The notes beneath the pieces were generated by a model. It ran no database searches and was not told the DNA's origin. It saw only the letters and a list, made by a program, of their open reading frames with translations. A DNA stretch of 64,000 nucleotides, taken from NCBI GenBank assembly GCA_016712285.1, contig JADJRK010000001.1:2113098-2177097 (forward strand), in the 5' to 3' direction. This document shows, one piece after another, positions 4,881 to 62,586 of the stretch. The stretch comes from Planctomycetota bacterium. GTDB lineage: Bacteria; Planctomycetota; UBA8742; UBA2392. The stretch's first letter is position 1; each line of letters opens with the position of its first letter. The position numbers were made by a program, and so were the translations under genes.

Positions 4881-6163
4881 GTACGGAACCCGGCAAGAAT
4901 GTCGTTGCGATGGGGCGTGTAGAAGTTGCGCCAGGTGTTGCGAATCAGGCGCGAGCGCGTGCAATACGTGCCGCCACGCAGCGCCTTGAAGCCGACGAAC
5001 CAGGGCTCGCTGTATTCGCTGTACATGTCAGCGACGAAACCCGGATAGCCCTTGAACTCGGTGTCTGTCCACTCCCACACGTTGCCCAGCATCTGGCGCA
5101 CACCGAACGCGCTGTCGCCTGCCGCGTGCGCACCGACATCCACTGTGCCCGGCACGCGGGTATCGAGGTTGCCGTGCTCGGGGCGCGGCGGTTCGTCGCC
5201 CCACGGGTAAAGCCGCTTGCGCGGGCCCAGGCCGCCCTTGCCGTTTGGTTCGCAGCTTGCGGCGCATTCCCATTCGGCTTCGGTGGGCAGCCGGCGGCCG
5301 GCCCAGCGGCACCAGGCCTGCGCTTCGTACCAGCTTACGTGAATCACGGCGCGGTGCGGCTCAAGCGGCACCCACTTGTCGAACTGCCGGCGTTGCCACG
5401 CGCCGCCCTGCTTGCGCCAATACACCGGGTGCGCGCGCCCGTGTGCGATGCGCCACGCCCAGCCCTGTTCTCCCCAGTGCCTTGGATCCTCATAGCCGCC
5501 GTCGTCGACGAACGCGGCGAACTGCGACTGGCTGACGGCTGCACGGGCGATCTTGAACGGTTGCACCGTCACCGGGTGGGCCCACTTTTCGTTGTCAAAG
5601 ACGAACACGGCGTCTTTGGATGCACCAAGCATGAACGTGCCGCCGGGGATTTCAGCGTCGCCATCGAGTGGACCGGCCTCGGGAAAAACAGGGACAGGCA
5701 CCGTTGGTGCCTGTCCCTGTTTTTCGAGCTTGGGCTCGGGGTAGCCGAGTGTCTGGCGGGTGTAAGTGAACGCCTCGCCGTGCATGTCTTCGTGGTAGAT
5801 GGCGTAGCGCGTGAGGTAGAAGTCTTCAGGCGACAAACCGTCGGCGACGCGGTCGTGGATGGCCTTGCAGTACGCCAGCGTGTCCTCAAAAGAGGGCAGC
5901 GGCAGGTTCCAGCGCGTGGTGTGGGCAATGCTGATCGAGTCAAACAGCGCGTCTTCGTCCGGGCGTGTCGGCGGCAAGCCGCGCCTCTCACGCAGCACCC
6001 ACCGCGAGTAGAAGTAACTGGCGTGGCCGATTTCCCAGCGCAGGGGGTTCACAGTGGGCAAGTACGGGCCCATGAGCTGTGCTGGCGAAAGGTCAGTCAC
6101 CAGCGCCCGGCAACGCTGATGGGAGTCGTACAGTGCAGCAATCAGTGTGTCCGCATCGTTCAT
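4868..6163 (-). CDS. senA: EgtB/SenA-family sulfoxide (selenoxide) synthase (DinB-like N-domain plus FGE-sulfatase domain)
   Basis: 431 aa. DinB_2-type N-terminus with two HxxxE metal-binding motifs (HASYFYSRW, HTTRW, HEDMHGE); FGE-sulfatase-like C-terminus (RRLPTEAEWECAA, RGGTYCTRSRLIRNTWRNFYTPHRNDILAGFRTC). EgtB vs SenA cannot be distinguished from sequence alone. Confidence 0.65.
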   Translation of the reverse strand: MNDADTLIAALYDSHQRCRALVTDLSPAQLMGPYLPTVNPLRWEIGHASYFYSRWVLRERRGLPPTRPDEDALFDSISIAHTTRWNLPLPSFEDTLAYCKAIHDRVADGLSPEDFYLTRYAIYHEDMHGEAFTYTRQTLGYPEPKLEKQGQAPTVPVPVFPEAGPLDGDAEIPGGTFMLGASKDAVFVFDNEKWAHPVTVQPFKIARAAVSQSQFAAFVDDGGYEDPRHWGEQGWAWRIAHGRAHPVYWRKQGGAWQRRQFDKWVPLEPHRAVIHVSWYEAQAWCRWAGRRLPTEAEWECAASCEPNGKGGLGPRKRLYPWGDEPPRPEHGNLDTRVPGTVDVGAHAAGDSAFGVRQMLGNVWEWTDTEFKGYPGFVADMYSEYSEPWFVGFKALRGGTYCTRSRLIRNTWRNFYTPHRNDILAGFRTCAL

Positions 6164-10202: not shown

Positions 10203-13200
10203 CTATTCCTCTTCGCGTGAGCCCTTGGACGCCGCCTTCTTCTTTGCAGGCTTCTTTGCAGGCTTCTTGGCGGTCTTCTTGGCAGCCTTCTTTGCGGGCT
10301 TCTTCTTGGCTGCCTTCTTTGCCGGCTTCTTTGCGGCCTTCTTGGCGGCCTTCTTCTTTGCTGGCTTCTTCTTTGCCATGTTGCCTTCCCCCTGTGCTTC
10401 GCTTGGTTCGTTGCCGACGGCCGTTCCGGCGGCTGGTATTGTTTCCGGCGCGGGCGGGTCTTCAGGTTCTGACCCCGTTGCCGTGTTCTTCATTAACTGG
10501 CTGATGGCGCCGGATTGTACTTTTTCCCCGCGTCCGCGCCCGCCTCTCCTGCCCCTGCGACCACGCTTCTCGCCCGGCCGGCTTTCGCCTGACTCGCCCG
10601 GCTTTGCTGCGGCACGCGGGGCTGGTGCAGTCTCGCGTATGACCTCGATGTTCAACTGGTCTGGCAGCTTGTCGCCAAAGGTCACGGCTTTGCCTGCATC
10701 TGCCTTGATGCGCTGTTCGCGGGCCATGCGTTCCTGTTCACGTTCGCGCTGTTTCTTGCCGCCGCGGCGTCGTTTGCGGCGCCGTGAATCGGCATCGGCC
10801 AGCAACTGCGCGGCCTGCGGGCTGGCTGAGCCACTGGCCACTTCGGGCACGGCCACGTTGGTGCGCGACTTGTAAACGTCGCCTTTCACAAACGTGTTGA
10901 TGCGCTGGTCCATGTCGTACAGCACTCGCACGCCGCGGTCACCAACGTAGAAAAAGCGTGACTGGCCAAGGTCAAGGTCGCGCGAGTACTCGAACACGAT
11001 GCGCTTGTCGTAGGTCGCTTCCAATTCGTCGATGTCGTCGCGGAACTCGCTGTGAAGGTGGCTCAGCACGTGCGGATGAACCTGCACTGCCAGCTCTTTC
11101 ACGCGCTCTTCGACCAGCGCCAGTTTCATGCGCCGGATCAGCGAAAGGCACGAGGTCTCGGCGCTGCGCACCATGCCGAAGCCGCCGCAGGTCGGGCAAC
11201 CCACGAACGTGTATGACTTGATGCTGGGGCGCACGCGCTGCCGCGTCATTTCCATGACGCCGAACGGTGAAAAGCGCGCGACCTTCGTGCGGGCGCGGTC
11301 TTTGCGCAATTCGCGCTTCAGCAGGTTTTCCACGTCACTGCGGTGCTTGGCGCTCATCATGTCGATGAAGTCGTTGCACACAATGCCGCCCAGATCGCGC
11401 AGCCGCAGCTGGCGACAGATCTCCGGGATCGCCTCCATGTTTGTCAGGTAGGCGGTTTTCTCTGCGTCGCCGCCGCCGGTGAACTTGCCGCTGTTGACGT
11501 CGATGCTGATCAGCGCCTCGGTCTGTTCAATGAACAGATAGCCGCCGGACTTGAGCGTGACCTTCTTGTCAAAGATGTGCTCGATCTGGCTTTCCAGGCC
11601 GTTGGCGAAGAACAGCGGGATGTCGTCTTCGTACAGTTTTACGCGGTCGCGAAAGCTGGGCATCAACTGGTCAAAGAACGCCACCACGCGATCAAACACT
11701 TCGCGGTTGTCGATGACGATCTCTTCTGTTTCAGCAGTGAAATAGTCGCGTACGGCGCGAATCGCCGGGTCGCTGTCGGTGTACAGCAGGGCAGGGGCCT
11801 CGGCTTCGTGGATGCGCTCGACGATGACGCTCCACACCTTCAGCAGATAGTTCAGGTCGCGCAGCAGGTCGTCATAGCTGCGGTCAATCGCCGCCGTCCG
11901 GATAATGACGCCCATGCCCTCGGGCACGGGCAGTTTGTCGAGCATCTTGCGCAGCTCGTTGCGGGCGCCGCCGTCTTCAATCTTGCGGCTGACGCCGCCG
12001 CGATCGCTGCTGGGCGTGAGCACCATGTAGCGGCCGGGCAGGCTGATGAACGTGCTGAGCCCCGGGCCCTTGCCGCCCTGGCTGGCCTTGGTCACCTGGA
12101 CCACGACTTCCTGGTTGCGCTTGAGGATGTTCTGAATCTTCGGCGGGCCGCGGTGATAGCGGAATTGCGGGCCGGGCACGCCGCCGCTGCCGCCGTCTGT
12201 GGGCTTGCCGTCGATGTCGCGGGTACCGCTGGCGTCGGCGTTGCCGTTGGGCTGCGGCGGTGCCGACCCGTCAAGCACGCGCTTGGGCAGGTGACCGCCC
12301 CGCTTCTTGGGTGTGCGGCGCCGGCGAGGACGCTTGGACTTGGGCTTGGCTTCAGGTGCAGCTTGCGCGCCTTGCACCAGCTCCGGCGTGGGCTTCTCCG
12401 CGGCGGGTGCGGGCTCCGTGCGGTCCGGCGTTGCCGGCACTGGCGTCGGCGTTGACTCAGGGGCTTGACCCGGTACGGGTGTGGCATGGTCAGTGCGCGG
12501 TGTGCCCGTACGGCCGTCTGGGCGTCCTTCTGCACGGCCCTCACCACGGCCGCGACCGCGGCGACCGCGGCGGCGACGGCGGCGGCGCTGTTCGGCTTCT
12601 CCGGCCACAACCGGTGTCGACGCTGCACCGCTCGATGGCGCCGGCTGCGAAGCCGCGGCCTGGGGTGCAGGCACAGCCTCGAACCTGCCCGAATCTTCGC
12701 TCGCAGGCCGGGGTTCGCCCGGGGCCTCGTGCTCAGGCATGGCGACGTTCAGTGGCGAGTCCGAGACGCGATGTCCCGCCTGCCCGGAGTCCAGGGACTC
12801 AAGAAACTGGGCTTCTTCGGGCGCCTTGCCGTTGGACTCCTGCTGCGTCGAAACAAAGTCGGCAACCTCTTCGACTTCGCGCTCACGCGCGCTGTTCAGG
12901 ATCGAGTCTTCGGGCAACTGTTCTTTGACGCGCAGCGTGCGGCTGAACAGGTCTTTGACGTTTGGCGAATTTTCGTAGGCGTAGTTGATGTCGCTGATGT
13001 GCAGAAAGCCGTTTCGCTCAAGGCCCACATCGACAAAGCTGGCCTGGATGCCGGGTTCAATGTTGTTGATGATGCCTTTGTAGATGTTGCCGACGTGCTT
13101 GAGCTGGCTTGGGCGGTCAACGAAGTACTCGAAGAGTTTCCCGTTTTCCATCACCGCGATACGGCATTCGTCGCCTTCTGCGACGTTCATAAAAATCTTA

Positions 13201-13208
13201 CGTGTCAT
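10203..13208 (-). CDS. rne: ribonuclease E (Rne) with Ala/Lys-rich histone-H1-like C-terminal tail
   Basis: Catalytic N-half MTRKIFMNVAEGDECRIAVMENGKLFEY with S1 and RNase E/G domains; start set at ATG 13208 (ORF extends to 13295); C-terminus is (AKK/PAKK)n ending KKAASKGSREEE. Confidence 0.9.
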   Translation of the reverse strand: MTRKIFMNVAEGDECRIAVMENGKLFEYFVDRPSQLKHVGNIYKGIINNIEPGIQASFVDVGLERNGFLHISDINYAYENSPNVKDLFSRTLRVKEQLPEDSILNSAREREVEEVADFVSTQQESNGKAPEEAQFLESLDSGQAGHRVSDSPLNVAMPEHEAPGEPRPASEDSGRFEAVPAPQAAASQPAPSSGAASTPVVAGEAEQRRRRRRRGRRGRGRGEGRAEGRPDGRTGTPRTDHATPVPGQAPESTPTPVPATPDRTEPAPAAEKPTPELVQGAQAAPEAKPKSKRPRRRRTPKKRGGHLPKRVLDGSAPPQPNGNADASGTRDIDGKPTDGGSGGVPGPQFRYHRGPPKIQNILKRNQEVVVQVTKASQGGKGPGLSTFISLPGRYMVLTPSSDRGGVSRKIEDGGARNELRKMLDKLPVPEGMGVIIRTAAIDRSYDDLLRDLNYLLKVWSVIVERIHEAEAPALLYTDSDPAIRAVRDYFTAETEEIVIDNREVFDRVVAFFDQLMPSFRDRVKLYEDDIPLFFANGLESQIEHIFDKKVTLKSGGYLFIEQTEALISIDVNSGKFTGGGDAEKTAYLTNMEAIPEICRQLRLRDLGGIVCNDFIDMMSAKHRSDVENLLKRELRKDRARTKVARFSPFGVMEMTRQRVRPSIKSYTFVGCPTCGGFGMVRSAETSCLSLIRRMKLALVEERVKELAVQVHPHVLSHLHSEFRDDIDELEATYDKRIVFEYSRDLDLGQSRFFYVGDRGVRVLYDMDQRINTFVKGDVYKSRTNVAVPEVASGSASPQAAQLLADADSRRRKRRRGGKKQREREQERMAREQRIKADAGKAVTFGDKLPDQLNIEVIRETAPAPRAAAKPGESGESRPGEKRGRRGRRGGRGRGEKVQSGAISQLMKNTATGSEPEDPPAPETIPAAGTAVGNEPSEAQGEGNMAKKKPAKKKAAKKAAKKPAKKAAKKKPAKKAAKKTAKKPAKKPAKKKAASKGSREEE

Positions 13209-13872
13209 GTTCTTCCAGTGCTTCCGCTTCGGTTTGCGCGTCGGCAAGGATCGTGCGGGTCTTGGTGACCAGCAACCGGTTCGGATCAAGCCCAAGAATC
13301 TGCAGCAGGTCGGATGGTTTCATACCGCCATCCTGCCCGGCCTTGAGGCGCATGTTCAGCGCCCGGGCCTCGATGCTTGCCGCAAGCGTGAACTCACGGG
13401 CATCGAAATTGCGCGCCGGCTTTTTCTCGCCGCGCGAGCGGGAGAAGGCGTGCCCGGCTTGTGCCAGGAACACTTCCAGCCGCGTCTGCAGTTCCTGCGT
13501 ATCCAGTTCAGGTGGCAGTTCGCACTCGTAATCCGCCGCGATGACGCGCGGCCTGCCGGTTGCCAGTTCAGCCTGCTTCAGCGTCAGCCCCGCGGGCATC
13601 TGCCTTGCAAGCTCGTCTACTACGAATTCCGGCGCCGGTGATTCAAGGTCGTGCTGCAGGTCGATGTCGACAATTTCGTCGAGGCTCTCGACCCCCAGCG
13701 GCAACGCAAGCGCAAACGAGACCTTCGGGTGAGGGTTGAAACCCTGTGTGTAAGCGACATTCAGCCCGGACCTGCGCAGCGCCAGCTCAAACACCCGCAT
13801 CAAGTCATGATGCGAGATGAACCTCAGCGCCCCGCGCTTTTCAAAGCGCATCCGGTAACGGCTGAAAGCCAT
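13198..13872 (-). CDS. DUF2344 (TIGR03936-type) protein commonly encoded next to RNase E
   Basis: MAFSRYRMRFEKRGALRFISHHDLMRVFELALRRSGL; start uncertain (ORF extends to 14010); 11-bp overlap with the rne start. Confidence 0.65.
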   Translation of the reverse strand: MAFSRYRMRFEKRGALRFISHHDLMRVFELALRRSGLNVAYTQGFNPHPKVSFALALPLGVESLDEIVDIDLQHDLESPAPEFVVDELARQMPAGLTLKQAELATGRPRVIAADYECELPPELDTQELQTRLEVFLAQAGHAFSRSRGEKKPARNFDAREFTLAASIEARALNMRLKAGQDGGMKPSDLLQILGLDPNRLLVTKTRTILADAQTEAEALEEHDT

Positions 13873-32719: not shown

Positions 32720-33436
32720 TCATGCACTTTTCTGTGGACCGTTCACTTCGCGAGGTGAAAAGCGCGCGTCGAGTTGCTTCAGGATTTCGTCGCGCAGCTC
32801 GGCCGTGGTCTTGTCCACCCAGTCTTTGCCCTTCTTGCGGCGCACCGGCAGCTTGAACACGAAGTCACCCTTGATCGTGCCATAGCGTCGGCGAATCTCT
32901 TGCAGGAACTTCAGCTTCTCGGTGCTTTGCGGCGCGTCGCCGTCGCGGAACATGTACTTCTGCCCGGCTTGCCGCACCCAGCGCTGGCCCAGTCCAAGGC
33001 TGCGCTTGCGCGTGCGCGCCAGGCCAAAGCGCGGCGCGATGTCGAGGATCACCAGCAGGTCAGGCTTGGGGTGCCAGCCCTCGTGACGCTTGAGAATTTC
33101 CTGTTCCGGCACGCCCATCGCCCCCTGGTACACCAGCGTGCTGTACATGCTGCGGTCCTGGACCACGTCGGTGCCGGCGTTGAGCGCGGGCTTCACGATA
33201 GTGTCGATGCTCAGGCGACGGTCGGTGACGAACATGCCCATCCACTCGTGGGGTGTGGTGGCGTATTCGCCCGAGGCAAGCCGCTCCAGGATCAGCTTGC
33301 CGGTGGGCAGGTTGCTGGGCTCACGCGTCAGCAGCACGCGGCGGCCGCGCGCCTCAAGCGCCTCGCCAACAGCACGCGCCAGCGTGCTTTTGCCGGTACC
33401 GTCGATGCCTTCAATAATGATGAAGCGCCCGTGCAT
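32720..33436 (-). CDS. tmk: thymidylate kinase-like (dTMP kinase) with C-terminal extension
   Basis: P-loop FIIIEGIDGTGKST, LTREP, DRS motifs; start ATG 33436 (the ORF extends to TTG 33475 through the heptamer repeat, giving PTDNRQPTTDNQ); no SD before the ATG. Confidence 0.65.
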   Translation of the reverse strand: MHGRFIIIEGIDGTGKSTLARAVGEALEARGRRVLLTREPSNLPTGKLILERLASGEYATTPHEWMGMFVTDRRLSIDTIVKPALNAGTDVVQDRSMYSTLVYQGAMGVPEQEILKRHEGWHPKPDLLVILDIAPRFGLARTRKRSLGLGQRWVRQAGQKYMFRDGDAPQSTEKLKFLQEIRRRYGTIKGDFVFKLPVRRKKGKDWVDKTTAELRDEILKQLDARFSPREVNGPQKSA

Positions 33437-33438
33437 TT

Positions 33439-33538
33439 GGTTGTCGGTTGTCGGTTGTCGGTTGTCGGTTGGCAATGCCGAATTGAAGAATCAAACGCCA
33501 AAGGCTGCCAATCATCTGACAACTGACAACTGACAACT
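33439..33538. repeat. inverted repeat built from tandem heptamers: (GGTTGTC)x4 ... 45-bp spacer ... (CTGACAA)x3
   Basis: 33439-33466 GGTTGTC x4 (+GGTTGG); 33516-33536 CTGACAA x3, reverse complement TTGTCAG, differing by one base from TTGTCGG; abuts the tmk start codon. Confidence 0.6.
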
Positions 33539-33543
33539 GCCCA

Positions 33544-35328
33544 CTACCACCCGCCGCCGAAGCGTTTCTTGCGCTTGCGCGGCAGGCGCGGGTTGCCTGC
33601 TTCGGGCTCTGGCGGAGGAACTGCGGGCTGGGCCTGTGACGCGCTGGCCGTGCCGGGCATGCCATAGCCTCGCAGGTTCGGCGCGCGCCCGCTTTTCGAG
33701 CCCAGAATGCGGCTGTCGCGATTGACCTTCAGCGGCCCGCTTGCGGGCGCGTCAAAGAACCCGGGCAGCTTGCCGGTGCGCAGCACGTGCTCCATGTCCG
33801 ACACAAGCTGCATCGCGCTGGCGGGACGGTCTTCGGGCCGCTTGGCCATCATCGTCTGCAGCAGCGTGGCGGTTGCGTCGCTGATGTCGGGCCGGAAGTT
33901 CTTCGGGTGCGGCGGCGGCTCATGGATATGACGGTACATCACAACTTCGGGCGGGCCCTCGAACGGGACCTTGGCTGTCAGGCAGAAGTACATGGTCACG
34001 CCCAGGCTGTAGATGTCGCTGCGCGTGTCGATGTCCTGGCGGCCCATCGCCTGCTCAGGCGAGATGTAGTTCGGCGTCCCGACAGCCATGCCCTTGGTGG
34101 CGCCCTCGGGGCCATCGGCACGAACCTTGGCCAGCCCCAAGTCGAGCAACTTCACCTGGCGGTCGCGGGTGACCATGATGTTGTCGGGCTTGATGTCACG
34201 GTGCACCAGCCCCAGCTTCTCGGCGTGCTCCAGCGCCTTTGCGACCTGCACAATCAGCTCAAGGGCCTGGCGCTCGTCCATCGCGCCGCGCTCTTTCACC
34301 AGTTGCTGCAGCGTCTTGCCCTCGACGTACTCCATCGCGAAGTAGCACAGGCCTTCTACTTCGCCGGCGTCGATTCCGGTGATCACGTTTGGGTGGTTCA
34401 GCCGCGCGCTTGCCCGCGACTCTTGCAGAAAGCGGTGCTTGATGGTGGCGTTGGCCGCAAGCTCGGGTTGCAGAATCTTGATAGCGACCCAGCGCTCCAT
34501 GCGCACCTGGCGGGCCTTGTAAACCGTGCCCATGGCGCCCTGGCCCAGCTTTTCGTGCAGCTTGTAGCCGTGGATCTTGTCCGCGATCTGGTACATCTGC
34601 TGGTAGCCCTTGACGCGCTCAATGCCGGCCTTGTCCAGATAACCGCGTTGCATCAACAACTGGCCCAGCAGCGGTACGCGCTGGCCTTTCTGCAGCAGCG
34701 CGCGTTGCACGTTCACGCACTCCTGAATCTGTGCCGCGGTCACCAAGTTCAGGTTGACCGCCGCCTGGCCAAAGCTCAGCCGCGCGGTGTTGTCACTCGC
34801 TGGCGGCGGCTCGGCCTCGACGGGTTCCATGTCCTGGGTTTCCGCGAACGCGGGGTCGGGCGCGGCACGGTACTGCACCGACGGGCGCGGCGGAGTCTGC
34901 TCAAGATCATCCGGGTGTGGAATCTCGGTCGCTTCCCCCACCGGTTGCACTACGGGCGCGCTGTCGAAGACACCTTGGCGCGGCGAACTTGGTGCTGAAC
35001 TGACCTGGCGCACCGCCGGGTTCCCCGCCGGCCGGTTGCTGGCACTGCCTTGCGCGCTGCGCTGGGGCAGTGGTTGCGGCTGCGGCGCCTTGGCCGCTGG
35101 CGGCCCCAGCGACACCGTCGGTATGGTAGGCAGCTTCTGGGTCTCTTCGCCAAGCGGCTGGGCACCGTTCGGCTGTGCGCCGGGCATGCGGCGCTGCTCC
35201 GGGGCCGGCGCAGACTTTCGTGTGCGCTGGGTATCCGGAGTCTTTACCGGGTACACACGTTCTTTTCCGCCGCCTCCTTCAGAGTCGACAGAACGACGCG
35301 TGCTCAAATGCCACGCAAAGTGCATCAC
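33544..35328 (-). CDS. Ser/Thr protein kinase (Hanks-type) with Pro-rich N-terminal region
   Basis: Kinase motifs GQGAMGTVYKA, VAIK, HRDIKPDNIM, DLG, GTPNYISPE; true start uncertain. Confidence 0.8.
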   Translation of the reverse strand: MMHFAWHLSTRRSVDSEGGGGKERVYPVKTPDTQRTRKSAPAPEQRRMPGAQPNGAQPLGEETQKLPTIPTVSLGPPAAKAPQPQPLPQRSAQGSASNRPAGNPAVRQVSSAPSSPRQGVFDSAPVVQPVGEATEIPHPDDLEQTPPRPSVQYRAAPDPAFAETQDMEPVEAEPPPASDNTARLSFGQAAVNLNLVTAAQIQECVNVQRALLQKGQRVPLLGQLLMQRGYLDKAGIERVKGYQQMYQIADKIHGYKLHEKLGQGAMGTVYKARQVRMERWVAIKILQPELAANATIKHRFLQESRASARLNHPNVITGIDAGEVEGLCYFAMEYVEGKTLQQLVKERGAMDERQALELIVQVAKALEHAEKLGLVHRDIKPDNIMVTRDRQVKLLDLGLAKVRADGPEGATKGMAVGTPNYISPEQAMGRQDIDTRSDIYSLGVTMYFCLTAKVPFEGPPEVVMYRHIHEPPPHPKNFRPDISDATATLLQTMMAKRPEDRPASAMQLVSDMEHVLRTGKLPGFFDAPASGPLKVNRDSRILGSKSGRAPNLRGYGMPGTASASQAQPAVPPPEPEAGNPRLPRKRKKRFGGGW

Positions 35329-43532: not shown

Positions 43533-43567
43533 GGCGGGTACGGGTTTGGGGTTTGGGGTTTGGGGTT
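43533..43567. repeat. (GGGGTTT)x4 G-quadruplex-forming tandem repeat
   Basis: GGGTTTGGGGTTTGGGGTTTGGGGTTAG in the 5' region of gene 41423-43525. Confidence 0.6.
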
Positions 43568-43605
43568 AGAACCTTACTTGCACTCTCGCGTCAGTCTGAC
43601 TTGTC

Positions 43606-43636
43606 CAACCTCTGACCTCCAACCTCTAACCTCACA
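43606..43636. repeat. (CCAACCTCT)-type C/T-rich tandem repeat
   Basis: CCAACCTCTGACCTCCAACCTCTAACCTCAC; reads as purine-rich GAGGTTRG repeats on the minus (coding) strand. Confidence 0.45.
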
Positions 43637-45044
43637 TGCCAAGCAGGCCCTTCACGAACGTGATCGCTTCATCCTTTGTGCTGATGCGTCCCTCAAGCAT
43701 CTCGTCTTCAAGCGCCGTCAGCAGTTCTTTGTAACGCGGGCCCGGTGGCAATCCGAGCGCCTGCAAGTCATGGCCGTCGATCGGCAACTTCGGCTTGAGC
43801 GATCGCTCTTCGCCAAGGCTCTTGAACTCGTGCAGCTTGGCAAGCACGAACTTGTACGTCTCAAGCCGGTTGGGTCCGGCCAGGCAGTCAATGCGGTGCA
43901 GCTCAAGGTCTTCGTCAAAGTGCGGCTTGCGCAGCAGCCGCTTGAGCGTCGCCGTTTTCATCTTCGGCACGTTGATGAATTTCAGGTGGTCATCGACCAG
44001 CGACTTCACCCGCTCAATCACCTCGCCCGGAAACTTCAGTCGCGTCAGCACTTCCACCGCCATCTCGCCGCCCAGTTTGTCGTGGCCGTGAAATGTGATC
44101 TTGCCGCCGGTGTTCACGGCGGTCGGCGGCTTGGCAATGTCGTGCAGCAGTACACCCAGTGCCAGCGTGATCGTCGCGGGCTTCAACATCAGGTCCATCG
44201 CCAGCAGCGTGTGCGTGAACACGTCGCCCTCGGGGTGGTGCTCGGGCGACTGCATCACGCCGACCATGGCGCTGACCTCAGGCAGGACCACATCCAGCAG
44301 GCCGCTCTCGAACATCATGCGCAGGCCGCGCGAGGCGCCCACATGGGTGATCAGCTTGCTCAGCTCGTCACGAGTGCGCTCGGCACTGCACACTTTCACC
44401 TGCGGCGCCATCTCGCGCACTGCTTGCCAGGTGGCGTCGTCGATGTCGAAGTTCAGGCCGGCGGCAAAGCGCACGGCGCGCAACAGGCGCAGTTTGTCTT
44501 CGGCAAAGCGCACCCGCGGGTCGCCGACGGCGCGGATCACGCAGGCCTTGAGGTCGCGCAAACCGCCGACGTAGTCGTGAACTTCGCTGGTTTCAGGGTC
44601 AAGAAACAGCGCGTTGATCGTGAAGTCGCGCCGTGCGGCATCTTCGGGCGCGCTGGTGAACGCCACGCTGGATGGATGGCGGCCATCAAGGTATGGGCCG
44701 TCGAGGCGAAACGTCGCCACTTCCACGTCGATCGGCAACTCGTCGTCCATTACCCGAATCACGCCGAACTGCTTGCCCACCGCAACGGTGCGCTTGAACA
44801 GCGCCTCGACATCATCGGGCTTGGCCGATGTTGCGACGTCGTAGTCTTTCGGCTCGCGGCCCAGCAGCAGGTCGCGCACACAGCCGCCGGCAAGCAGTGC
44901 TTCATGCCCGTGCCGCCGCAGTGTGCTAATCACGCGGCGGGCCAGGGCAGTGACGGGGATGTTCGGCAGTTCGTGCACTTTCGCGATGATCCTTGATTGG
45001 CCGCTGGTACTCAATGGGAAGCCGGGCTGTACTGCAATTGCCAA
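43632..45044 (-). CDS. cca: CCA-adding enzyme / tRNA nucleotidyltransferase with HD domain
   Basis: Pol-beta NTase motif GGCVRDLLLGREPKDYDVAT, RRDFTINA, HD-domain HDIAKP; TTG start. Confidence 0.85.
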   Translation of the reverse strand: MAIAVQPGFPLSTSGQSRIIAKVHELPNIPVTALARRVISTLRRHGHEALLAGGCVRDLLLGREPKDYDVATSAKPDDVEALFKRTVAVGKQFGVIRVMDDELPIDVEVATFRLDGPYLDGRHPSSVAFTSAPEDAARRDFTINALFLDPETSEVHDYVGGLRDLKACVIRAVGDPRVRFAEDKLRLLRAVRFAAGLNFDIDDATWQAVREMAPQVKVCSAERTRDELSKLITHVGASRGLRMMFESGLLDVVLPEVSAMVGVMQSPEHHPEGDVFTHTLLAMDLMLKPATITLALGVLLHDIAKPPTAVNTGGKITFHGHDKLGGEMAVEVLTRLKFPGEVIERVKSLVDDHLKFINVPKMKTATLKRLLRKPHFDEDLELHRIDCLAGPNRLETYKFVLAKLHEFKSLGEERSLKPKLPIDGHDLQALGLPPGPRYKELLTALEDEMLEGRISTKDEAITFVKGLLGM

Positions 45045-45045
45045 T

Positions 45046-45130
45046 TACTAATGACCAATGAGCAATGACCAATGCAACGGCGCCTAGTTTCCGTTGGGCA
45101 TTGTTACTGGCTATTGGTCATTGTGGTTCG
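45046..45130. repeat. ~85-bp imperfect palindrome made of heptamer repeats (CCAATGA)x5 - central hairpin - (TCATTGG)x4
   Basis: CCAATTA CTAATGA CCAATGA GCAATGA CCAATGC; centre CAACGG-CGCCTAGTTT-CCGTTG; then GCATTGT TACTGGC TATTGGT CATTG; AT-rich island between the permease stop and the cca start. Confidence 0.6.
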
Positions 45131-46382: not shown

Positions 46383-46594
46383 GGTCCACAGTTGAGGATC
46401 AACACACCAACTGTCTACGAAACTCCGCGGAAAGGCACAAAGCAGCCACGGAGATCACGGATCTACACGGAGAAAGGCAACAGCCTCGACAGGATGCAAA
46501 GCGCAATCCCCCGCATCGTGTTGCGGTCCAGTTCTCCGTGTTCTCCGTGGCTGACAGTCTTGTCGTTGGATCGCATTGCAGCGCCAGGATTGCA

Positions 46595-62246: not shown

Positions 62247-62370
62247 CCCGAATTGCATCGTCCGCAATGTCCAATGCGTGCTGGGAAGAACCACCGTGAA
62301 ACTGCACTTAATGCTGGGGGGAAGACTCACCGACAGGATCCCAAACCCGCCGAGAACCTGTTTTGGAACC

Positions 62371-62442
62371 ACGGGTGAACACGGGTAAACACACGTGTGT
62401 AGAGTCGCGTCAACGGTGTGCACCCGTGTTCACGCGTGGTTT
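62371..62442. promoter_or_regulatory. 18-bp inverted repeat pair flanking an ACACACGTGTGT palindrome, upstream of the Rieske/cyt b genes
   Basis: CCACGGGTGAACACGGGT ... ACACACGTGTGT ... ACCCGTGTTCACGCGTGG (one mismatch). Confidence 0.4.
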
Positions 62443-62586
62443 CATTGCCATTGCCGTTTGTTTCACCAGCGTTGCTTTTCATGGGTCATTGGAGTTTGGT
62501 CATTTGCTGTTCGCGTGACTCGCGTTGCTCAATGACCGTTCCAACCGCATTGACCGCCACGGTCCAATCTTCGATTATCGTCCGCT

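Follow-up and report, generated by a model that had tools for sequence, protein, structure and literature searches.

An inverted pair of heptamer-repeat arrays between a protein kinase gene and tmk in Planctomycetota, a candidate STRR-type hairpin

The 64,000-nucleotide stretch analyzed here (the window; 63.4% G+C) comes from contig JADJRK010000001.1 of a Planctomycetota bacterium. It carries a Ser/Thr protein kinase gene followed by tmk, the gene for dTMP kinase, whose product begins with MHGRFIIIEGIDGTGKST. A thymidylate kinase domain is present in every tmk homologue examined. Both genes lie on the minus strand, and the 107-nt spacer between them is filled entirely by an inverted pair of perfect heptamer arrays (Table 1). 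In the mRNA sense, the kinase stop codon TAG (33546-33544) is followed by TGGG, a 5' arm of (CAGTTGT)x3.4, a 44-nt loop, a 3' arm of (CGACAAC)x4.7, AA and the tmk ATG. Tandem Repeats Finder (TRF) gives the unit as CTGACAA for 33516-33539 and as GGTTGTC for 33439-33471. The junction between the loop and the 3' arm holds an in-frame alternative start, TTG (33475-33473), which defines a longer open reading frame (ORF, 32720..33475). A heptamer inverted repeat at the tmk start had been described in an earlier reading of this sequence (the original prediction), and the TRF result, with both arrays scoring 100% at period 7, bears it out. The array does stand beside the ATG; the gap is 2 nt in TRF's phase and not the 3 bp first given. 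That tmk lies on the minus strand, that the hairpins form a dispersed family and that cassettes are swapped between conspecific strains are points beyond that prediction.

The double unit GTTGTCNGTTGTC, searched with at most one mismatch, occurs six times in the window, all at the tmk spacer, against 0.27 occurrences expected from shuffles. Among the periods tested (4-12), only period 7 yields perfect arrays of at least three copies in the window. The heptamer arrays at the kinase-tmk spacer are real and non-random. As had been noted, no Shine-Dalgarno (SD) motif was found before the tmk ATG; the same is true of every relative lineage examined, unlike 23 of 50 neighbouring genes, which have a GGAG-type motif.

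The two arms pair at six of the seven positions of each unit, in agreement with the earlier claim. At the seventh, the tmk sense strand has a mismatch, A.C, where the opposite strand has a G.U pair. Folded as sense RNA, the exact spacer reaches -39.7 kcal/mol (z = -3.9; none of 200 shuffles folded as well), a check that upholds the long interrupted hairpin proposed at the AUG. The sense-strand stem is ~30 bp long and folds at -39.7 to -45.6 kcal/mol; in the fold it joins bases of the last kinase codons and stop region to the ACCA..UG of the tmk start region. The arms are predicted to form a long interrupted hairpin whose base encloses the stop of the kinase gene as well as the start of tmk. 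Its geometry, in which 4 nt separate the stop from the 5' arm and 2 nt separate the 3' arm from the ATG, is similar in relatives. The antisense RNA of a 126-nt segment around the spacer reaches -55.7 kcal/mol (z = -6.4), and it folds better because its seventh position is G.U where the sense strand has A.C. The stem is followed by AA-AUG without a U-tract. A scan for sigma-70 promoters and terminators revealed no terminator-like site in 33200-33800 and no promoter on the sense strand. At the gathering score, Rfam 15 finds only tRNAs in the window and no family that covers the hairpin; at E<=1 it adds only spurious matches to microRNA-precursor hairpins, with 17-23 bits against cut-offs of 60-90.

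We gathered kinase-tmk spacers from about a dozen lineages, fetching relatives (labelled L001 and so on) one protein at a time. The best tmk matches are proteins 60-91% identical to that of the window, from metagenomes and metagenome-assembled genomes (MAGs) of uncultured Planctomycetota, and the kinase-tmk gene order is the same in the relatives. The spacers share a layout of stop codon, 0-10 nt, an array of about four heptamers, a 35-70-nt loop, a complementary array, 0-6 nt and start codon. The heptamers themselves differ. The 5' and 3' arms are built of CAGTTGT and CGACAAC in the window, of GGTCAGA and TCTGACC in L001, of GATTCAG and CTGAATC in L002, L003, L081 and L165-168, and of GATTTTG and AATCCAA in L004, L161-164, L171 and L173. 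Array-bearing spacers fold at z = -2.5 to -6.0. In the aligned arms, 82% of cells are paired and 11 of 19 pairs have changed on both sides, values that 0 of 500 shuffles reached; because this alignment was built from arms already in register, and is hence fitted to the structure, the counts merely quantify what the eye sees, namely that both arms change together. The counts drop sharply when partner columns are slid, and they include a misregistered L001 row, which weighs against the structure. From the aligned spacers, both arms evidently change together between lineages. Mismatches within the arms, read on the sense strand, comprise 26 G.U, 33 A.C and 49 transversions against 492 Watson-Crick pairs.

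The 3' end of the kinase gene also stands out in the comparison. Its last ~40 nt (33547-33590, minus strand), ending in …CCCCGCAAGCGCAAGAAGCGCTTCGGCGGAAGCTGGTAG and encoding the peptide PRKRKKRFGGSW before the stop, are nearly invariant in L001-L004, L081 and L161-L173, synonymous sites included, and contain a mini-hairpin, AAGCGC-AAGAA-GCGCTT.

The original prediction had taken conservation in close relatives as its test, and the outcome is divided: heptamer-armed hairpins recur at the spacer, and they are missing in L170 (tmk 80% identical), L082 and L005, whose spacers have no arrays. An intermediate state is seen in L169 (85% identical), where the 44-nt spacer holds only a direct (CTGACCT)x4 array placed directly before the tmk ATG. 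Elsewhere in L162, the orthologues of the DAHP>71aa and Aldedh>273aa pairs, which enclose hairpins in L081 and L165, touch or overlap and leave no spacer. The suspected variation in copy number did not appear among near-identical strains of the relatives: copy number is constant within L162/163/164, L165-168 and L172-174, which show single-base differences only. For the window organism itself, the exact tmk sequences (251 aa and 238 aa) found no conspecific contig, and the contig found with L28 does not extend as far as the spacer.

The MAG contigs L004 and L081 are 98-99.5% identical over ~20 kb, whereas their kinase-tmk spacers (L004:9856-9970 and L081:9910-9974) are unalignable and hold entirely different cassettes. 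The L004 cassette is a 140-nt GATTTTG/AATCCAA element whose arms, loop motif (CCAACGTGG) and ATGAGTTCA start match those of L171, a lineage whose flanks are clearly divergent. The L081 cassette is an 89-nt GATTCAG/CTGAATC element, as in L081's own subclade. Stop and start codon delimit the swapped segment, which is bounded by the near-invariant kinase end and the first tmk codons. We read this difference as a probable recombinational exchange of the cassette. We consider an assembly chimera unlikely, since no more than 15 nt of sequence are shared at the right-hand junction. Judging from these comparisons, the hairpin evolves rapidly, and the element can apparently be gained, lost, halved or swapped as a cassette.

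The 3' arm can be read as coding sequence. In the window, the TTG at the loop junction is in frame with the tmk ATG, and read-through gives MPTDNRQPTTDNQ-MHGRF; the PTDNRQPTTDNQ extension is possible but would be optional. Such a read-through from an upstream start had been foreseen, and six related tmk clusters, in which the sole usable start lies in the loop, show the 3' arm to be translated. The proteins of these clusters (P0001, P0007, P0008, P0017, P0036 and P0039; 245-259 aa) start with M-x-x-IQNPKSEIQN-x-x-GRF, in which the IQNPKSEIQN-like segment is the AATCCAA array read in frame. In L161, L162, L171 and L173 no start codon separates the array from the P-loop; translation must therefore begin at the ATG where loop and 3' arm meet, and so include the 3' arm. 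In L004 both ATGs are present and in frame. Heptamers containing TGA or TAA (CTGAATC, TCTGACC) are found at this same position although no frame through them is open, so the encoded peptide is not the conserved feature. For the same reason, we rejected a peptide function of the PTDNRQ extension as a general explanation. Annotations of tmk should be read with care, as gene callers extend or shift the tmk start through the arrays, depending on stop codons in the heptamer.

The original prediction had also called for a search for further (GGTTGTC)n sites. Within the window this unit is confined to the tmk locus, but two more heptamer hairpins made of other units are present, giving three inverted heptamer-array pairs in 64 kb with three different heptamers. 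On the plus strand, the arms of the second element are (GGGTTTG)x3.7 and (TCCAACC/TCTGACC/TCTAACC)x4.3, with an inverted partner matching at 16 of 21 positions (TRF, folds). The third combines (CCAATGA)x4.9 with a degenerate (TCATTGG) array (partner 15/21); its folds reach z = -3.0 and -2.4, and the stop codon TAG of the permease gene sits within its 5' arm. In 236 kb of clade sequence, all period-7 arrays have an inverted partner within 150 nt, at 15-21 of 21 matches. Their density, 21 per 236 kb, is about fivefold that in loci of other phyla (31 per 1.85 Mb), where most period-7 arrays have no inverted partner. All heptamer elements lie between co-directional genes: kinase>tmk, cca>700aa, permease>cca, DAHP synthase>71aa, Aldedh>273aa and thiS>thiG. 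Heptamers are common to elements at different loci, and loops are not. We rejected a uniform rule by which the CA-rich arm stands beside the start codon, as CCAAT-type elements are arranged oppositely.

Table 1. Position of the kinase-tmk element, its flanking genes and the other heptamer elements of the window.
Feature	Position	Strand	Basis or context
tmk (dTMP kinase), 238 aa	32720..33436	-	ATG 33436-33434; PF02223 in all homologues
3' arm in mRNA sense, (CGACAAC)x4.7	33439..33471	-	TRF period 7, 100% matches
44-nt loop with small internal stem	33472..33515	-	Sequence, fold
5' arm in mRNA sense, (CAGTTGT)x3.4	33516..33539	-	TRF period 7, 100% matches
Ser/Thr protein kinase gene, upstream neighbour	33544..35328	-	Pfam Pkinase E=6e-52; ORF list
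Second heptamer element	43542..43633	-	Between the stop (43632) of a CCA-adding/polyA-polymerase-family gene and the ATG (43525) of a 700-aa ORF
Third heptamer element	45041..45127	-	Between an amino-acid permease gene and the CCA-enzyme gene

Part of the second element, 43542-43567 on the plus strand, reads (GGGGTTT)x3.7; its four G-tracts make up a motif of the G-quadruplex type, on the strand that serves as template for the minus-strand genes on either side. The window further contains two inverted pairs of tandem units of other periods, each in a spacer beside a minus-strand gene: one of period 9 (CACGGAGAT) at 46443-46553 and one of period 10 (CACGGGTAAA) at 62364-62444. They have a CACGG core in common and may represent a second family of repeat-armed hairpins.

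The heptamers of the clade also occur far outside it. The window 5' arm contains ttgtcagttgtcagttgtca, which is identical to the repeat csR1.1 of Nostoc PCC 7120, present in 44 genomic copies (PMC2408588); written as TTGTCAG, the same heptamer is common to both. The thiS-thiG element of L165 is built of TTCAAAA/TTTTGAA, and such arrays are found upstream of many Nostoc genes (bioRxiv 10.1101/2022.06.06.494920). The viral contigs of IMG/VR hold 61 stretches with (TTGTCAG)x3 and 21 with (GACAACC)x3. On the viral contigs with at least 55% G+C, 19 of 42 arrays have an inverted partner, and in all 19 pairs the GT-rich arm comes first and the CA-rich arm, C(T/C)GACAA, second. Exactly the arm pair of the window is found on L193, as (TTGTCAG)4, 14 nt and (GACAACC)4. 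The viral (GACAACC)n arrays often stand 10-25 nt before start codons. Viral contigs with (TTGTCAG)n/(GACAACC)n arrays fall within L176-L255 (for example L193:3892-3947, L239, L247 and L192), and the 42.6-kb contig IMGVR_UViG_3300043379_000009 carries at least six such arrays.

The window holds other repeats and RNA genes as well. A cluster of 11 tRNA genes occupies 1.2 kb at 205-1410 on the minus strand (Rfam tRNA, 43-69 bits); an imperfect 34-nt inverted repeat (1205-1238/1305-1338) flanks one of them, and two adjacent, operator-like copies of the 16-nt palindrome TATTGACGCGTCAATA lie beside the cluster at 1586-1621. At 5683-5725, two perfectly matched 20-bp inverted arms around a 3-nt loop (GAAAAACAGGGACAGGCACC/GGTGCCTGTCCCTGTTTTTC) include a T-run and so resemble a bidirectional intrinsic terminator. 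Finally, an in-frame 12/36-nt tandem repeat (CTTCTTTGCGGG, ~9.5 copies) at 10236-10377, within the minus-strand ORF 10203-13295, is expected to give the 1030-aa product a repeat rich in lysine, alanine and proline.

Since 1990, cyanobacteria have been known to carry tandemly repeated heptamers. We class the tmk-spacer element as a hairpin of the short tandemly repeated repetitive (STRR) type, found here in a new phylum. It consists of tandem 7-nt units in at least three copies, it belongs to a set of dispersed intergenic loci with several heptamers, and its arrays can form hairpins. The STRR family was defined in heterocyst-forming cyanobacteria, and the closest proteins and genomes here are from uncultured Planctomycetota; the element is therefore filed as a member outside the original STRR taxon. 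The heptamer of the third window element, written TTGGTCA, presumably corresponds to STRR2. To our knowledge, neither cassette swapping between conspecific strains nor translation of one arm has been described for STRRs. A limited literature search found no report of such heptamer elements in Planctomycetes. In cyanobacteria, the 7-bp STRRs form intergenic hairpins, for instance between hupS and hupL, for which a role in transcript stability or translational coupling has been proposed (PMC2670836). The likeness thus includes the 7-bp units, the several dispersed heptamer families, the position in spacers of co-transcribed genes and the hairpins, with a further example upstream of hoxW. What differs is the high-GC (63%) planctomycete host, the presence of an inverted partner for all arrays, and the span of the pair over the whole spacer from stop to start.

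Other heptamer systems resemble the element in part. The TAACTGA direct repeats of marine Beggiatoaceae, some Cyanobacteria and Bacteroidetes, for which S1, Csp or CsrA have been proposed as readers (MacGregor 2015, PMC4679880), come as 2-6 mostly intergenic, "forward" heptamers that end ~1 nt before usually RBS-less (ribosome-binding-site-less) starts, in front of housekeeping genes and patchily across phyla. The sole direct array of L169 looks exactly like this arrangement. TAACTGA repeats, however, use essentially one heptamer, in direct orientation and inverted in 1 of 170 sets, whereas many heptamers in inverted pairs are found here. In Haemophilus influenzae, the (ATCTTTC)n array of hmw1A is one arm of a hairpin in the 5' untranslated region, and experiments showed that RNase III cleavage raises HMW1A expression post-transcriptionally (PMC12721329). 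This transcribed heptamer array, being an arm of a long hairpin, offers a plausible model for the tmk-spacer stem. Its other arm is a non-repeat G-rich region, whereas both arms are arrays here, and its highly variable copy number phase-varies an adhesin, unlike the housekeeping gene and constant copy number of the relatives. The GGGNATC heptamers of Xanthomonas and Nostoc, which prefer about four units, are mostly transcribed and have no link to mobile elements (Rehm et al. 2015, PMC4692102), are likewise enriched between aligned ORFs within 50 bp of a start or stop, and the four G-tracts of window 43542-43567 recall them. They are regarded as G-quadruplex-forming sequences, with no mention of inverted pairs, and the tmk arms are not of G-tract type. 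Repetitive extragenic palindromic (REP) sequences and bacterial interspersed mosaic elements (BIMEs) are also co-transcribed intergenic hairpins that are dispensable and strain-variable. They are copies of a conserved 20-40-nt palindrome without tandem 7-mers, whereas no REP-like consensus runs across the elements found here.

Our preferred reading, to which we give about an even chance, is that an STRR-type hairpin, made of an inverted pair of short, relatively AT-rich heptamer arrays and co-transcribed with its neighbours, masks the tmk start and either modulates or couples its translation or serves as an RNase III target. Replication slippage would create and homogenise the arrays; since those of the window are perfect, homogenisation may have been recent. 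Selection on the stem, hairpin-templated repair, or both, would keep the arms complementary. With the spacer presumably transcribed together with the flanking genes, the GU-rich 5' arm would sequester the CA-rich, G-poor, SD-less leader and AUG of tmk in the mRNA, and tmk would be translated mainly once the stem has opened. It might be opened by a ribosome that terminates at the kinase stop (translational coupling by unmasking), a mode that the 4-nt distance between stop and stem would suit, or RNase III might cut its ~30 bp. The effect on tmk would be modulatory, not essential. We favour a function on the grounds of how the element is placed between stop and start, of its occurrence in co-directional spacers only, and of the 19:0 arm order in the viral pairs.

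Several findings weigh against this reading. No significant structure is formed by the array-less spacers of L170 (z = -0.7), L082 (z = +0.6) and L005 (z = -0.2), and that of L169 folds at z = +1.3 with no compensating structure. As some relatives have neither array nor hairpin, the element is dispensable; as the array-less ones have no replacement structure, the hairpin is not needed for tmk expression. Comparison of G.U with A.C mismatches, as a test for RNA-level selection, showed no G.U preference in the arms, and the pair counts come from an alignment already fitted to the structure. At the tmk element the antisense strand outfolds the sense strand, so arm complementarity may be kept at the DNA level, and in roughly half of the elements the sense fold is no better than the antisense one. 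A start codon lies in the loop in some relatives, and masking of the AUG therefore cannot be a general model. In CCAAT-type and TCAAAAT-type elements the CA-rich arm comes first, so the type of the 5' arm differs between heptamer families. Because of the absent G.U preference, the better antisense fold, the CCAAT-type arm order and the loss without replacement, any function is probably no more than modulatory, and a neutral origin keeps some probability. The elements would then be neutral or selfish simple-sequence palindromes, made by slippage in permissive spacers and corrected at the DNA level by template-switching or quasi-palindrome correction, with no regulatory role; their positional "conservation" would reflect a tolerant site and shared ancestry. 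We consider this somewhat unlikely. It would account for the half-present element of L169 and for the spacerless gene pairs of L162, as well as for the absences, mismatch pattern and folds just described, and heptamer arrays are the commonest longer prokaryotic simple-sequence repeats, ascribed to polymerase slippage (PMC4679880). The 19:0 arm orientation of the TTGTCAG hairpins, however, is not expected from a direction-blind neutral process. Nor does neutrality fit well with the tight stop-to-start placement in co-directional spacers only, with the recurrence of the same few heptamers across phyla, or with a swapped cassette that is again a hairpin of the same geometry.

The remaining alternatives appear less probable. 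The 7-nt units could be binding sites for a protein that binds single-stranded nucleic acid with ~7 nt covered by each domain, such as a cold-shock-domain protein or S1, or for a DNA-binding or nucleoid protein, with the inverted copy titrating or occluding them. Such a reader would suit arms of about four units that keep strictly to a 7-nt period, and also the ATTGG/CCAAT in several heptamers (window 45041-45127, L001:46-121, L081:4328-4386, L165:4288-4359), which is the Y-box core linked to cold-shock-domain proteins. S1, Csp and CsrA have been proposed to read TAACTGA (PMC4679880), and for Nostoc, too, a binding partner has been put forward (bioRxiv 10.1101/2022.06.06.494920). We nevertheless judge this quite unlikely, since heptamers at the same spacer vary widely among relatives, which a sequence-specific reader would not tolerate. 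We give very little credence to an RNA thermometer, the thermosensor of the original prediction, or to a slippage-driven phase-variation switch of tmk. The hairpin does abut the AUG, and the perfect, hence recently homogenised, arrays of the window are potentially slippage-prone. RNA thermometers, however, are weak, meltable zippers, and a stem of ~30 bp at -40 to -46 kcal/mol is far beyond that stability and far too stable to melt at physiological temperatures; moreover, there is no SD to mask, and the structure is absent in L170, L082 and L005. As for a switch, tmk is an essential housekeeping gene, near-identical strains of the relatives do not differ in copy number, and the ATG lies downstream of the array, so a one-unit change would not turn tmk off. 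Equally improbable is that the element is an intrinsic terminator of the kinase gene, or a mobile insertion of the REP type or of the miniature inverted-repeat transposable element (MITE) type. A large hairpin directly after a stop codon and the cassette-like replacement between strains might suggest as much, but the stem has neither a U-tract nor a terminator-like site and the next gene begins 2 nt past it. Transposition is further opposed by the sharing of heptamers, but not loops, between different loci, and by boundaries with no target-site duplications. Only orthologous spacers have homologous loops; the arms thus either change where they stand or are carried by homologous recombination rather than by transposition.

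A broader view, which we regard as a long shot, is that these elements are cis-regulatory heptamer cassettes exchangeable across phyla, between Cyanobacteria, Planctomycetota and phages, with a small shared repertoire of 7-mers (TTGTCAG, TTGGTCA, TTCAAAA and others) and a conserved single-strand-binding reader working in 7-nt steps, such as a cold-shock-domain protein or S1. If it were true, the GU-rich arm would be a built-in anti-leader for an SD-independent, CA-rich translation leader, and recombination at the ultra-conserved gene ends would move cassettes among strains and lineages and thereby retune intercistronic expression ratios. Heptamer repeats are abundant in many bacteria, and this kind of element, down to the same heptamer, is now found in a distant high-GC phylum and on viral contigs. 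The orthologous spacer can be traced through about a dozen lineages, with arms that change together, cassettes that are apparently swapped, an arm that is lost and an arm recruited into coding sequence. This natural series makes RNA-level selection on the stem, and translational coupling or throttling, directly testable.

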